From the IMG/VR virus record IMGVR_UViG_3300028832_000102, positions 32,001 through 96,000 of that record: a DNA stretch of 64,000 bases. The stretch is one strand, 5' to 3'. Source of the DNA: a virus. Taxonomy: Duplodnaviria > Caudoviricetes. This document shows, in pieces, positions 1 through 13,042 of the stretch (positions within the stretch are counted from its first letter, which is position 1; each line of letters starts with the position of its first letter). The position numbers were made by a program, and so were the translations under genes. A model generated the notes under the pieces. That model searched no databases and was not told where the DNA came from. It saw only the letters and a list, made by a program, of their open reading frames with translations.

Positions 1-67
1 ATTCATGGGGCATGGTCTATAACCATTAACCTTTAACCGATAACCATTAACCGTTACACTCCCCTCC

Positions 68-235
68 GTGCTTGGTGCGTTGCTTTACTGCTCTGATATG
101 AATCAGGATGGAGGACGGAGAGTCATCTTCAGTCCACAGGGAATGTCCCTGTTGACTGAGATGAATCCCGTCCGTTAAAATCCTGAAGCATTAAATAACA
201 TTTGCACGTCTGGTAGCGTCAATCGGCGCACGCCG
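68..235 (-). ncRNA. RT-associated structured ncRNA unit 1 (candidate)
   Basis: Long imperfect hairpin 103-186 (TCAGGAT/ATCCTGA, GGACGG/CCGTCC, TCATC/GATGA, TCAGTC/GACTGA, ACAGGGA/TCCCTGT). Outer GTGC(75-78)/GCAC(204-207) stem and small hairpin CGGCG-CA-CGCCG (224-235). Same layout as units 2-4 but most divergent; strand inferred from operon direction. Confidence 0.6.
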
Positions 236-251
236 CTGAAATGCAGTTCGT

Positions 252-408
252 CTTGCGGCTTGGCATAGCACTATAACTTTTCGATGACAGGCGGATCGCC
301 GTAAGAGATGCGGACCTGAAGCCATAGGCTGAACGGTCCCATCTCTGTTCAGGAGATCCACCGCTAAAGGTGTGCCGCCCTGCGGACTGCTGGCTGTATG
401 CGCAGCCA
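252..408 (-). ncRNA. RT-associated structured ncRNA unit 2 (candidate)
   Basis: CTTGCGGCTTGGCA-N17-GATGACA, hairpin 291-364 (GAGATG/CATCTC, GGACC/GGTCC, AGCC/GGCT), TAAAGGTGTGCCGCCCT, small hairpin TGGCTG/CAGCCA 391-408. Confidence 0.75.
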
Positions 409-417
409 AATAGAAGG

Positions 418-487
418 CCCTCCTCGGCCCTCCCTGTGTAGGGAGGTATTTTTCTCTCCCCCTAAGCAGGGGGACTGAAGGGGGTCT
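418..487. repeat. Two Prevotella-type REP-like palindromic elements
   Basis: CCCTCCCTGTGTAGGGAGG (also at 3802-3833) and TCCCCCTAAGCAGGGGGA. Confidence 0.6.
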
Positions 488-489
488 TC

Positions 490-1578
490 TTACTTTCGTG
501 CCTTAGCACGTGCCCACTCTCGCATCTTCGCCTCAATGTCGATGTGGTTTTCCTCAATCATCTGACGCATCAGACCGAACAGTCGCCAGCCCTCGCCGTC
601 GGCATAGGTCTTAGCCGCCAACTCCAGCAGGTCGAGACCATCATCGTTGCGGTTATAGAAATCATTGTCCTTGGGGAACTTGCAATCGTGGAACCTCAGC
701 AGGTTCTGCATCGTGGCGTAGGCACCCATACCCTTGTAGGCGTCCTTCCACTCCTGGCACTGCTTGAAGTAGCCGGCAACGTTCAGGTGGGCGCCACGGA
801 CAAAGTCTCTCACGGCCTCGTAGAGCTTCTGAGGCGACTTCGTGTGGTTCACGTCCAGTTTCATCTTCAATAAACGCATAGGAGCAATCAACTTCTTGTC
901 GATGTCCGTCACGAAGTAGTTCTTGCTATCGTACTGCACATAAGGCACACCCTTGCACTTGTGCTGCGGGCGCCCCATAGCATCCTCACGCATCTGCTCG
1001 ATGTGGTTCACCGCCATCTTATAGGCCAACTCCTGATTAAACCAGCGGTTACGGGCACGATAGTTCTCCATGTCGCCATTCTTGAAGAGACGGGCCTGCA
1101 CCCTCAGCTCCTCCAGCAACATCGTCCACTGGTACTTGTAGCCGTGGCGATTCAGCCACTCTGTGAAGCCAATAGGCTTGCGGTGATAGTCCTTGGCGGT
1201 CAGGCCATGGAACACCTGCGACATCACCCACCTGCGGAACAGGTTTCGGTTGGGCACGGTACCGCTGCCGAGAATAGCCTTGATGATAGGGTCATCAGCG
1301 CTCACGGGCACAGCCCCGCCGTCGTCCGTCTTCTTCATCATCTGCTCGCCACCTCCAGGAATCTGGATAGAGAAATACTTCGAGATGTCGATGCCCGCTG
1401 CTTTTAGCGCTTCACCACGCTTCTTCACGGGCAACTCAATGATACCGATACCCGAGTCCACACCCAGCACCGTAGCGTTCTTCACCTTGTGCTCGTGCTT
1501 GTCGAGTACGTCAAACTCACTGCCGCATACGGGGCAGATAACTCTTGTCTCTTGCTTTTCGTTCTTTGTCATAGCCAT
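490..1578 (-). CDS. Hypothetical RT-neighbour (partner) protein with N-terminal CPVC knuckle, 362 aa
   Basis: Clean ORF directly downstream of and co-oriented with the RT; CxxC near N-terminus; flanked on both sides by ncRNA units. Confidence 0.85.
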   Translation of the reverse strand: MAMTKNEKQETRVICPVCGSEFDVLDKHEHKVKNATVLGVDSGIGIIELPVKKRGEALKAAGIDISKYFSIQIPGGGEQMMKKTDDGGAVPVSADDPIIKAILGSGTVPNRNLFRRWVMSQVFHGLTAKDYHRKPIGFTEWLNRHGYKYQWTMLLEELRVQARLFKNGDMENYRARNRWFNQELAYKMAVNHIEQMREDAMGRPQHKCKGVPYVQYDSKNYFVTDIDKKLIAPMRLLKMKLDVNHTKSPQKLYEAVRDFVRGAHLNVAGYFKQCQEWKDAYKGMGAYATMQNLLRFHDCKFPKDNDFYNRNDDGLDLLELAAKTYADGEGWRLFGLMRQMIEENHIDIEAKMREWARAKARK

Positions 1579-1641
1579 AATGTTTTAAATGGGTTAAATA
1601 AATTGTAAATTGTAAATCGTTAAATAGTAAATTATCTCCGC

Positions 1642-1832
1642 CTTGCGGCCTGGCACATAGACTGTATAGTCCTGATGTCATGCGGCGTGTGCCAGAACGA
1701 GGAGTCGTCTTCCAGTCGCGGAAGCTGGGTGTTACCCAGCTGTAGCGCTGGAGTGACAGACTCGCGAGCTCTGGTTAGGCACGCCGCACCTAAATCGTGC
1801 CGCCCTACGCAGATAGAACCCTGTGCGGGGTT
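1642..1832 (-). ncRNA. RT-associated structured ncRNA unit 3 (candidate)
   Basis: CTTGCGGCCTGGCAC-N17-GATGTCA, hairpin 1681-1788 (TGCGGCGTG/CACGCCGCA, GAGTC/GACTC, TCCAG/CTGGA, AGCTGGGT/ACCCAGCT), TAAATCGTGCCGCCCT, small hairpin AACCC/GGGTT 1817-1832. Confidence 0.8.
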
Positions 1833-1838
1833 AGATAG

Positions 1839-11575: not shown

Positions 11576-11670
11576 TTGCGCCCATAACCGGAGTCGAACC
11601 GATAGAGAGTTGCATCCCGCCACCTGATGCTTTTATCCGCGATAGTACTCCCTGCCGCGTTAATATGGGC
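11576..11670 (-). ncRNA. tRNA-like element
   Basis: Perfect GCCCATA/TATGGGC acceptor plus ATCGG-TTCGACT-CCGGT T arm; central arms abnormal. Confidence 0.5.
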
Positions 11671-11681
11671 TGCCTATAGAG

Positions 11682-11984
11682 TTACACGAACGATCTGCCT
11701 TTGCAATAGACCGTGATGTAGCTATTTTCAAACCTGTGCGTACGATAGACCTGACGCTCACACTTCGTGATAGTAGCCTGCGGCTTCTTCTTAAAGCGTT
11801 TCGTCTTGCACTCGCGCACGATGCGATAGCGCTTGGTGTCCTGTAACTTGAAATACGCTTCACGACTTGCTTTCTCACGTCGATAGTTACGCATAGCCTC
11901 GGCGAACTCCTCGCGCTCGCGTTCTGCTTGCTGCGCACGCTCGATAAGCGCACGCTGCCGCTCATAATAGATGTCATGTTCCAT
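11682..11984 (-). CDS. Hypothetical basic protein, 100 aa
   Basis: ORF with A-rich leader. Confidence 0.55.
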   Translation of the reverse strand: MEHDIYYERQRALIERAQQAEREREEFAEAMRNYRREKASREAYFKLQDTKRYRIVRECKTKRFKKKPQATITKCERQVYRTHRFENSYITVYCKGRSFV

Positions 11985-12042
11985 TATGTTTTCCGTAGTT
12001 TAAATTGTCTTTCTTATCTGCGTATAGAGTGTTCTCACCCGA

Positions 12043-12117
12043 TAGCCCCCAAGGTGGGAGTCGAACCCACCTGGCGCACGCGATAGCGATTGCCTTTCCC
12101 GAAATTTCACATGGGGA
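12043..12117 (-). ncRNA. tRNA-like element
   Basis: GTGGG-TTCGACT-CCCAC T arm, CCCCATG/CTTGGGG acceptor. Confidence 0.45.
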
Positions 12118-12130
12118 GCCTCGCGATAGA

Positions 12131-12778
12131 TTAGATGTTAGCGTCCTCGACGCGTACCTTAGTCTTCACGAGTTTTCCGTCACGATTCTGAACGATATAG
12201 AGGTCGCCCTTCTTCAGTTCTTCCCACTTCTCCGCACTCGCGGTAGCGCGCTTCTTCTCGTTCTCGATGTCACGGCTCTGCTCGAGCACTTTCATGAGGA
12301 GCTTAGGACCCCATCCGTACTCGCTGATAAGACACTTGCGGTAGAGCTTGATAGGCTTGCCTGCCTCGCCCTTAATCTTCTTGTCGGCTTCCTCACTCGT
12401 ATAGAGCGACTCTTCCTTTGTTCCGTTAGCGTCATTGTCAACAGTCACCTTAACATTACGCTCGAAGTAGGCATAGTTAGCCTTAACCTTACCATCAGAG
12501 CCGATAACCTTGAGGTCGGCATCGGTAGCATCATTGTACATTCCTACTGTGTACCCCAGGATAACGCCCTTAGAGGTCATCTTAGGCAATAGTCCGTACT
12601 TAGCAACCTGCTGATACTTCTGCAACTTGTAGATAGTCACGTTGCCATCCTTGTCGACTGACTCGAGCTGCTTCTTCAGGTCGTTAGATAACGCCTTAAG
12701 TTGCGCCTGCTTAGTGCATGAATTGTTAATCACTGCTTGGTTCAGTCTCTTCTCGTTAGCTTTTTCTTGCTGTGTCAT
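12131..12778 (-). CDS. Hypothetical Lys-rich protein (first gene of leftward operon)
   Basis: ATG 12778 after TTTTACAACT leader; long clean ORF. Confidence 0.75.
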   Translation of the reverse strand: MTQQEKANEKRLNQAVINNSCTKQAQLKALSNDLKKQLESVDKDGNVTIYKLQKYQQVAKYGLLPKMTSKGVILGYTVGMYNDATDADLKVIGSDGKVKANYAYFERNVKVTVDNDANGTKEESLYTSEEADKKIKGEAGKPIKLYRKCLISEYGWGPKLLMKVLEQSRDIENEKKRATASAEKWEELKKGDLYIVQNRDGKLVKTKVRVEDANI

Positions 12779-12828
12779 AGTTGTAAAATTTTTGAAGTTT
12801 GACATTAAGAAATCTGCAATAAGTGCAT

Positions 12829-12914
12829 TGTGGGTGAGTAGGGATTCGAACCCATACACACTCCGTCCACACTTTACGAGATAGATAGACAGACTCCTTG
12901 CCATCGCCTCTCCC
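12829..12914 (-). ncRNA. Degenerate tRNA-like element
   Basis: GGG-TTCGAAT-CCC T loop, GGGAGAG/CTCACCC acceptor with one mismatch. Confidence 0.35.
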
Positions 12915-13042
12915 GCTTACGGGTTGGTGCCAACTATTGCAGAGGCGAATCCCCACACACAAGGGTACACAATACGCTGCCATTCCGAAGCACTCACGTG
13001 CCAAACACGCATTGGGGCATTTTCATAGGTAGGCGCAAATAT

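Follow-up and report, generated by a model that had tools for sequence, protein, structure and literature searches.

What maintains a four-letter word, written hundreds of times and overwhelmingly in one orientation, along one arm of a phage genome? The question is raised by an uncultured cattle-gut phage, of which we analysed a 64-kb stretch of an IMG/VR record (hereafter the window). A first-pass annotation had noticed that ATAG, that is CTAT on the coding strand, crowds the left end of the window, and had proposed an oriented signal such as a protein-coating site, a primase start or an element of the early transcript.

Between positions 1 and 13030, CTAT occurs 216 times on the minus (sense) strand against 16 ATAG. 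No other tetranucleotide of this region is as asymmetric or as over-represented, and 216 of the 705 TA dinucleotides of the minus strand sit within CTAT. The earlier hand count for 10561-11660 was exact (32 ATAG and 4 CTAT on the plus strand), and the excess over dinucleotide background was borne out, a first-order Markov model expecting 6.2 +/- 2.4 sites in that interval. The enrichment had been described as confined to the left region of the window; it extends in fact past the left edge, to about 16.4 kb of the genome. The whole leftward operon, 28.7 kb long, holds 314 CTAT versus 37 reverse complements on its sense strand, and the rest of the genome outside the arm carries 389 of the favoured word versus 324 of its reverse complement. 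The arm can be delimited as follows.

1..13028, minus strand: the portion of the early-left operon, saturated with CTAT, that falls inside the window, drawn from the 216 versus 16 count, the gradient and the saturation.
Genome 16401-45060, equal to window -15599 to 13060, minus strand: the whole CTAT arm, from site counts.
13025..13028, minus strand: first CTAT of the arm and sharp onset, from the site list and the absence of CTAT in co-oriented upstream genes.

The skew had been said to fade right of about 13.0 kb. A boundary does lie there, but its shape is a step: the last site is the one at 13025-13028, and the co-oriented minus-strand genes just upstream (13642-14872) hold no CTAT at all.

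Several controls support the view that the word is an oriented signal under selection. Codon usage is not the cause, as had been argued from the outset, since shuffling of synonymous codons leaves z scores of 12.4, 6.7 and 6.5 in three zones of the window. The former argument that the signal is strongest in non-coding DNA does not hold, coding and non-coding densities being equal within each zone (21.3 versus 19.2, 15.0 versus 15.6 and 10.3 versus 11.1 per kb). Among codon pairs able to spell CTAT, 61% do so in the promoter-proximal 5 kb versus 19% elsewhere, and this synonymous saturation falls with distance through 61%, 51%, 40%, 24% and 22% to the 19% baseline. Rare codons are forced in the arm, where CTA makes up 18% of leucine codons versus 7% elsewhere and TAT 75% of tyrosine codons versus 47%; the excess appears in all three frames, via differing codon choices, and persists over differing arm genes. 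The reverse orientation is slightly depleted beyond codon usage, with 26 observed versus about 39 expected when five zones are summed. The sequence logo shows C or G after CTAT in 77% of cases and a weak G at -2, almost all the information being held in the 4-nt core, with a further 0.19 bit at the next position. The refutation set out in the first-pass annotation thus fails, the signal surviving both codon and dinucleotide correction. Genome-wide, a weak sense-strand bias exists.

The sites are also remarkably ordered along the arm. Across the three window zones their density drops stepwise, from 21 per kb through 15 to 10, and the decay is approximately exponential, starting at about 20 per kb with a length constant (lambda) of 11-13 kb, similar in three genomes. 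Spacing is under-dispersed, with a coefficient of variation of 0.67-0.81 versus 0.97 for random placement; gaps shorter than 18 nt and gaps longer than 120 nt each occur at about half of the expected rate, and helical phasing at 10-11 bp was not found. Such a scarcity of both short and long gaps fits a reader that bears a footprint and needs full-length coverage, in agreement with the protein-coating site proposed earlier. The polarity of the word matches the sense strand all along the arm: plus-strand ORFs within it are all spurious by coding score, and no antisense gene was found in the first 23 kb at least of the arm in any relative examined. At the far arm end of the relative G2, an antisense gene (78453-79403) carries 9 CTAT in the polarity of the arm versus 2 on its own sense strand, which hints at polarity at the DNA level, on a single gene with small numbers.

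The same skew was looked for in relatives, as had been suggested, and at least 15 related IMG/VR contigs display the same word, polarity and sharp onset with differing arm genes. The arm is built as a mosaic whose genes can be exchanged, and in relatives the gradient is rebuilt over non-homologous ones. More distant phages with a shared reverse transcriptase have no CTAT signature; in the approximately 20 kb compared around the reverse transcriptase, these CTAT-negative phages have little in common with the clade beyond that module. The enzyme itself is encoded within the arm.

1839..3455, minus strand: reverse transcriptase gene with 18 CTAT.

It was considered as the reader of CTAT and rejected: the CTAT-positive relative G074, 98% complete, does without it, and CTAT-negative phages have it. 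No host was found among 401 Bacteroidales genomes. Two Bacteroidales genomes of 34-43% GC, both unlikely hosts, were sampled in pieces and show no replication-strand skew of CTAT; in the one with pieces oriented around dnaA (200 kb), the count is 700 versus 698.

The position of the onset becomes meaningful when the DNA to its right is considered.

13200..13230, minus strand: candidate early-left promoter of Bacteroidota type, read from the sequence as TTTG (13230-13227), 19 nt and TATCTTTG (13207-13200).
13045..13190, minus strand: leader carrying short direct repeats (two copies of GGAAACACCCGTATGCCC, plus runs of ACAACGG/GAAACAG), which are candidate operators or iterons.
13642..14163, minus strand: gene for a 173-aa protein, directly upstream of the onset, characterized by an ESM Atlas lead and synteny.

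The onset lies about 170 nt downstream of this TTTG-N19-TAnnTTTG promoter, and transcription would start near 13194. At the equivalent leader position, the relative L006 has a 470-bp array of GGGGAACACCCC repeats. The product of the 173-aa gene has no Pfam match and is probably a Cro/C1-type HTH (CI-like) repressor, as suggested by the ESM Atlas (score 0.94, 174 features in common), a result that serves as a lead and does not amount to an alignment. Synteny of the onset and the repressor gene holds in each of the four mapped relatives (G1, G2, G71 and G73). Contigs from an RNA library cover 10621-13168 with nothing at 13221-14828, while DNA runs continue across. The RNA edge at 13168 gives a weak hint in support of the early promoter, these being assembled contigs of a single metatranscriptome from which strand and true ends are not readable. 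No strong minus-strand terminator was found within the arm between 1 and 13 kb. With an onset near the promoter, RNA contigs starting there and no strong internal terminator found, the early transcript fits best among the readers originally proposed.

Part of this putative transcript is hardly translated.

10548..12130, minus strand: mostly non-coding stretch with the peak site density (44 CTAT versus 6 ATAG) and two tRNA-like elements, its ORFs scoring poorly as coding.
10504..10578, minus strand: tRNA-like element 4, with a cloverleaf-like fold and T loop GGTTCGAGTCC.
11590-11600, 12057-12067 and 12842-12852, minus strand: three further T loops.

A tRNA-like element gives a weak tRNA-Sec-like Rfam match (18.6 bits, below threshold), and ARAGORN detected no tRNA. 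Positions 10150-12777 are about 96% identical on contig X4, from another gut metagenome run, and the flanking stretches align in pieces only.

At as many as 61% of the positions where CTAT could be spelled, selection has prevailed over codon choice, and it has done so in dozens of early genes that are unrelated and often exchanged. Some directional machine must therefore read the DNA or the RNA. We tentatively favour the reading that CTAT(C/G) is a docking word of the sense strand, read during early transcription on the nascent RNA or on non-template DNA. It would be directional and would run throughout the repressor-controlled early-left operon, transcription exposing it as CUAU in the growing RNA or as CTAT on the displaced DNA strand. 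Its reader would be peculiar to this phage clade, probably phage-encoded, and would bind about once per 20-90 nt; the task would probably be to keep a transcript of at least 28 kb, partly untranslated and with no strong internal terminator found, elongating and intact. The word, its polarity, the selection on it, the gradient, the even spacing, the onset downstream of the promoter and the conservation in the clade are observations; the site of reading, the reader and the function are what we propose to explain them. Processive antitermination, anti-Rho action and nuclease protection are candidate functions. The exponential fall from the promoter could reflect selection that peaks where transcripts appear first and in the greatest numbers.

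The gene order of repressor, early-left promoter and leftward operon is reminiscent of cI-PL-N in phage lambda. Lambda N-nut, HK022 put and the boxA of rrn operons and T7 consist of one or two elements, structured or 12 nt long, close to a promoter, and known antitermination systems generally use one or a few structured sites and not hundreds of tetramers. Our locus resembles them in having a sense-strand signal directly downstream of a repressor-controlled early promoter heading a long early operon. It differs by hundreds of tetramers over 28 kb, the 314 sites being dispersed with no discrete structured element or cognate antiterminator found. CUAU has no preference for unpaired positions in predicted local RNA folds (0.152 versus 0.162 overall), Rfam returned no match above threshold, and we recognised no gene for an RNA-binding protein or an antiterminator.

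The word could instead be a Chi-like attenuator for a host AddAB-type helicase-nuclease, read on the unwound 3'-ended strand, which we consider rather unlikely. An enzyme entering at the onset and moving into the arm would read 5'-(C/G)ATAG-3', one arriving from the opposite end 5'-CTAT(C/G)-3', and clustering near a DNA end created by packaging, injection or a rolling-circle tail would halt degradation and start recombination. The architecture is indeed like that of the lambdoid phages LLS and MD8 and of phage P1, in which Chi is a short asymmetric word, nearly one-way and concentrated at a boundary, running through coding DNA and presumably retained via the directional machine that reads it (PMC12315714). 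Sites lie towards one genome end in LLS (20 in active versus 3 in inactive orientation) and in MD8 (32 versus 0; PMC12315714). Bacteroides uses AddAB, with a Chi not known as of 2010; the AddAB Chi cited in that work is 5 bp, the authors suggesting shorter Chi in AddAB systems, and the processivity of BfAddAB, about 12.6-15 kb, is near our decay length (PMC2887965). The mosaic arm and the arm polarity retained in the antisense gene of G2 also speak for a Chi. However, the onset occurs without a known DNA end, two relatives assembling as circles with 127-bp overlaps. The best conserved protein of the structural module (640 aa, 80% identical in G73, with no family or PDB match), which we would guess to be the large terminase, is encoded 18 kb from the onset on the opposite strand. 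Chi measures 8 nt in E. coli and Pseudomonas but 5 nt in B. subtilis, and a phage carries 20-50 copies of it; the arm word, by contrast, has a core of 4 nt, short of a defined word of 5-8 nt, and is present 314 times in 28.7 kb. Unlike the Chi of LLS and MD8, the arm word is evenly spaced, which is unexpected for such sites, and begins at an internal early promoter. We know of no Chi that approaches one site per 50 bp or so.

Even spacing and few gaps below 18 nt are compatible with a footprint on DNA as well, and two genes of the immunity region beside the onset encode possible binders.

14405..14872, minus strand: gene for an HU-HIG family DNA-binding protein (PF18291, 3.2e-13; PF00216, 1.4e-14), with 0 CTAT on its sense strand.
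19302-19739, minus strand: second HU-family gene, from Pfam and synteny, kept in five of the five relatives mapped.

The arm might accordingly be an oriented binding array for these phage HU-family proteins, on double-stranded or transiently single-stranded DNA, with a head-to-tail coat silencing or compacting a toxic early arm in the plasmid-prophage state. The mild depletion of the reverse orientation would suit such an array. We nevertheless hold it unlikely: the helical phasing is absent, a one-way orientation is unusual for duplex binders, and HU genes are common among Bacteroidota phages, which makes their presence weak evidence. To our knowledge, HU proteins generally lack sequence specificity.

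A four-letter RNA word also brings to mind T4 RegB, which cuts GGAG in early mRNAs, and CTAT may by analogy be an endoribonuclease tag for the fast inactivation of early messages. The enrichment singles out the early operon and its sense strand, the scarcity of long gaps would place a site in every short segment, and a subset of sites, GACTATG or ACGACTATG, lies directly at start codons (15-30 copies in relatives), just as GGAG is partly found at translation-initiation regions. T4 GGAG differs in doubling as a Shine-Dalgarno sequence and in its uneven distribution through coding sequence. No RegB-like or other nuclease gene was recognised here, and the structured, seemingly abundant leader RNA is the densest in sites yet is recovered in the RNA library. 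We give a cleavage tag a low probability.

Primases, for their part, use short one-strand words. T7 gp4 and bacterial DnaG recognise template words of 3-5 nt, 5'-CTA-3' being a DnaG initiation triplet in Firmicutes. CTAT would in such a case mark start sites for a phage primase-helicase, or host DnaG, on the lagging-strand template, which is the sense strand if the fork is co-directional with transcription. A candidate enzyme is an 1155-aa phage protein with a weak DnaG-type CHC2 zinc ribbon (E 1.8e-4, 21.7 bits versus a Pfam cut-off of 24.9) and a weak match to PHROG 360, DNA primase (E 1.7e-5). It is present in 4/4 CTAT-positive records tested and 0/5 CTAT-negative ones, a correlation that is probably trivial since the latter share little with the clade beyond the reverse transcriptase module. 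Primase words are expected across the lagging template of a replicon, whereas the arm is a single saturated operon that starts abruptly at a promoter and decays exponentially. Elsewhere in the genome enrichment is weak, with no mirrored plus-strand excess right of the onset. A second, moderate enrichment lies in the replication operon.

21308..27053, minus strand: replication/partition operon (DnaA_N-AAA protein, ParA) with 6-11 CTAT per kb on the sense strand, from counts.

The primase start put forward by the first-pass annotation is disfavoured, and we regard it as improbable.

A functionless by-product of composition or mutation, such as might arise if the non-template strand underwent context-specific deamination or if the arm were of foreign origin, is highly improbable: time spent single-stranded can create gradients of strand asymmetry, and the TAT/TAC ratio is somewhat raised after T, but none of the words one step away from CTAT is depleted to the extent that an excess of about 15 sites per kb would demand, and the use of all three frames via different codons, the under-dispersed spacing and the same gradient over non-homologous genes in many relatives all stand against it.

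The extreme orientation bias of an asymmetric word also recalls phage T7, whose EcoP15I sites are reportedly all in one orientation and thereby escape Type III restriction. Restriction evasion was rejected here, as it requires avoidance only, while the favoured orientation reaches 4.5 times the right-arm density and 61% of synonymous opportunities.

None of the catalogued readers, whether Chi with AddAB, primases or nut-type antiterminators, fits every fact. As far as we know, Bacteroidales lack Hfq, CsrA and any known Chi sequence. The picture that we provisionally retain is one of phage-plasmids of rumen Bacteroidales in which a graded coat, docked about every 50 nt, may shield a 28-kb early operon from termination, nucleases or silencing. 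If true, the docking word would represent a new kind of processive control signal, maintained according to where it lies in the operon, whichever genes are there, and finding its reader would uncover a new level of control over early genes in the phages of Bacteroidales. Should the word turn out to act on AddAB, it would be the first candidate Chi for the Bacteroidales enzyme. The signature itself can be used as a marker that locates the early promoter in the genome of an uncultured phage and shows which way, and how far, the early operon runs.

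Window 1-13030 contains 216 copies of CTAT on its minus strand, against 16 of the reverse complement. It is the top 4-mer of this stretch by over-representation and by strand asymmetry, and it takes up 216 of the 705 TA dinucleotides. A hand count in the first-pass annotation (32 ATAG vs 4 CTAT in window 10561-11660) was exact, with a dinucleotide-preserving model giving an expectation of 6.2 +/- 2.4. The same annotation had confined the enrichment to the left region of the window, which does not hold. The source record measures 128,014 bp, of which bases 32001-96000 form the window, and the enrichment runs beyond the window's left edge to genome ~16.4 kb. 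Over this whole arm, an early-left operon of 28.7 kb, the counts are 314 vs 37, as compared with 389 vs 324 across the remaining 99 kb. The real genes of the region all lie on the minus strand, plus-strand ORFs being their shadows, and CTAT is therefore a sense-strand word. Its core has four letters, followed by C or G at 77% of sites and accompanied by a weak preference for G at -2. The distal-most gene of the arm (genome 16401-17000, or 4401-5000 of locus L001, outside the window) carries 8 CTAT in 600 nt (13/kb), well over its distal neighbours, and shares 81% identity with a gene of the related phage record G1.

At the right-hand side, the proposed fade beyond ~13.0 kb proved to be a step: the last site occupies 13025-13028, and CTAT is absent from the co-oriented genes at 13642-14872. 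From this step the density decays roughly exponentially, going from ~20/kb down to a baseline of 2.5-3/kb with a length constant of 11-13 kb; two complete relatives have a very similar profile. The spacing is more regular than chance (CV 0.67-0.81 vs 0.97), gaps below 18 nt and gaps above 120 nt each being found at about half the expected frequency. A search for 10-11 bp helical phasing gave none, only the codon period of 3.

Codon usage had been judged an insufficient cause, and the control bears this out. Synonymous codons were shuffled inside each zone, that is, each successive stretch of the arm away from the promoter, a conservative procedure because it retains the zone's own skewed codon usage; the three window zones still gave z = 12.4, 6.7 and 6.5. 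Relative to the right arm, TAT makes up 75% vs 47% of tyrosine codons, the rare leucine codon CTA has a share of 18% vs 7%, and ACT one of 31% vs 18%. Where a codon pair could spell CTAT with the protein unchanged, 61% do so in the promoter-proximal 5 kb, then 51%, 40%, 24% and 22% in further zones, over a baseline of 19%. Coding and non-coding DNA have the same CTAT density in each zone, contrary to the claim that the signal is strongest in non-coding DNA. None of the single-step neighbours of CTAT shows a depletion large enough to have supplied it, and a neutral origin of the pattern is very unlikely. Quadruplet decoding or an altered genetic code was also rejected: translation table 11 leaves the minus-strand ORFs intact, and CTAT is found in each of the three frames.

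The features surrounding the onset and the arm are the following, in window coordinates unless a related record is named.

Features of the early-left operon and its surroundings
13230-13200, minus strand: canonical Bacteroidota promoter, TTTG at 13230-13227, a 19-nt spacer and TATCTTTG at 13207-13200, the first site lying ~170 nt downstream
10504-10578, 11570-11680, 12037-12140 and 12822-12925, minus strand: four tRNA-like elements, each with a T loop that matches GGTTCGANTCC exactly
14405-14872 and 19302-19739, minus strand: HU-family genes (HU-HIG and Bac_DNA_binding) of the immunity region, the second kept across the clade
17176-17259, minus strand: c4-2 antisense RNA (42.2 bits to Rfam RF02944), ahead of ORFs of 166 aa and 382 aa
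429-446 and 3812-3831, plus strand: pair of strong, near-identical terminator hairpins, CCCTCCCTGTGTAGGGAGGG then a T run
2490-2960 of related locus L006 (~44.9-45.4 kb of related record G2): 470-bp direct-repeat array of GGGGAACACCCCTGAA type, immediately upstream of the CTAT onset

Short direct repeats directly follow the promoter in this genome, and the array of L006 may represent operators, iterons or a packaging signal. The next upstream gene, whose position is retained in four relatives, encodes 173 aa with a Cro/C1-type repressor likeness by language-model features, which we treat as a lead only. With this promoter, repressor-like gene and leftward operon, the gene order recalls that of cI, PL and the early-left operon of phage lambda.

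Public sequencing runs were examined as assembled contigs. In one bovine metatranscriptome, contigs cover 10621-13168 and nothing upstream, where DNA runs do continue; this boundary is a weak hint, since strand and true ends cannot be read from contigs. The leader segment 12898-13168 has the deepest coverage (30.8 vs ~4.5 in neighbouring parts) and may correspond to a small or leader RNA of high abundance. Mostly non-coding, the first 2.5 kb of the transcript include the four tRNA-like elements, which combine acceptor-like stems with aberrant D and anticodon arms, several with CUAUCGCG in the anticodon-like arm; ARAGORN called 0 of the 4. In some relatives (G73, L007 and L005), T-loop matches are likewise found near the start of the arm. 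Rfam families were not detected in the leader, c4-2 being the sole match found. The largely non-coding window 10150-12777 is ~96% identical to one contig of gut metagenome run X4, in which neighbouring stretches align in pieces only, and ~20 ruminant or other gut metagenome runs hold 11-19% of sampled words from window 9000-15000. No strong minus-strand terminator was found in window 1-13 kb. The two plus-strand hairpins are oriented against the operon, flanking a reverse transcriptase (RT) gene (1839-3455, minus strand) and a 362-aa gene, and may stop antisense transcription or belong to RT-associated RNA units.

The phage encodes a 3407-aa tape-measure protein, a head-protease-like protein, glycosyltransferases, a ParA partition ATPase and a DnaA_N-AAA replication protein, and carries a P1-type c4-2 antisense RNA. 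The ParA, DnaA_N-AAA and c4-2 features, together with the tape-measure and head-protease genes, point to a temperate, probably plasmid-borne, siphovirus-like phage. The c4-2 RNA and the two ORFs that follow it are laid out like the P1 immI region (c4-icd-ant). A candidate replication origin is the AT-rich stretch at 20001-20600 that adjoins the DnaA_N-AAA gene; GC content is 34.6% in the 1-kb bin 20001-21000, and the GC skew changes sign a few kb beyond. Near-identical DNA was found in bovine gut metagenomes, the promoters are of Bacteroidota type, and contigs of Muribaculaceae and other Bacteroidales carry more distant phages with the same RT. The capsid-region protein was absent from 401 Bacteroidales genomes searched for a host, megablast gave no match among GenBank phages, a MutS-I protein query of IMG/VR returned no relatives, and an IMG/VR DNA pattern search with GTACTATCGCGGANAAA gave chance matches only. 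A 640-aa candidate for the large terminase matches nothing in Pfam, PHROG or, by sequence, the PDB; the 257-aa protein that comes first in the arm likewise gave no PDB sequence match, and no usable Atlas hit.

Searching with the RT gave five contigs (68-72% identity) in which the same word, polarity and gradient recur. A 112-aa immunity-region protein query added ten further loci, including two with identical sequences. Every arm has CTAT as its top 4-mer, at 5-6x expectation with reverse-complement counts of 2-19, and the 4 kb upstream of the arm show no enrichment. The RT was rejected as the reader: CTAT-positive record G074, 98% complete, lacks it, so that the RT is not required, and phages with an RT at most 63% identical lack the word. 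An apparent CTAT-negative close relative (L080/G072) was discarded, being 61% complete on a contig that apparently ends at the arm start. A CTAT burst at 38437-38615 of G73 (L085) is a tandem 7-bp repeat of ~17 units adjoining immunity genes, unrelated to the dispersed signal. Genes start in the context (A)CGACTATG or AACTATG at 15-30 copies per 21-kb locus in relatives L003 and L006 and, in the window, for example at 9415, 9849, 10070 and 12777. CTAT-negative RT-bearing phages have GAATTATG in its place, and the former looks like a translation-start context specific to the clade.

Whatever reads the word must be directional. Our favoured, still tentative reading is that CTAT would be recognised on the sense strand during early transcription, in nascent RNA or non-template DNA, its copies serving as repeated docking sites. 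This reading is preferred because the onset lies below a promoter, the word is absent from co-oriented upstream genes, its sense polarity is invariable, coding and non-coding densities match, the spacing is even, and the decay would follow transcript abundance. Counted against it are that a search for a reader found none, that CUAU in RNA shows no bias to unpaired context, and a small hint towards DNA-level polarity from G2. In that record, one antisense gene at the far arm end has 9 sites in arm polarity vs 2 in its own sense orientation; none of the arms examined contains antisense genes in the 23 kb next to the onset. Literature searches on CUAU with bacteriophage and on the RbpB binding motif returned nothing relevant.

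A Chi-like role of the word is unlikely, even though the closest published architecture is the Chi array of lambdoid phages LLS and MD8, end-clustered and in a single orientation (PMC12315714). Bacteroides uses AddAB, for which Chi was unknown in 2010, and the measured processivity of 12.6-15 kb resembles the arm decay length (PMC2887965). We rate this role low because the onset coincides with no known DNA end, no known Chi resembles a 4-nt core at 1 site per 50 bp, the even spacing is left unexplained, and two sampled Bacteroidales genomes, neither likely the host, show no skew. Part of the data is explained by each of three further candidates: RNase tags of RegB type, primase start sites, and an oriented coat of HU-family proteins encoded by the phage.

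The initial observation is thus confirmed and extended, and its interpretation as an oriented signal is partly supported: the word is oriented and selected, most likely tied to early transcription. These phages mostly do not have their arm genes in common, as they do their structural and replication genes, and among the RT genes of relatives some sites are conserved and others turned over through synonymous changes. The signature is therefore tied to genome position, not to particular genes, and is continually maintained.
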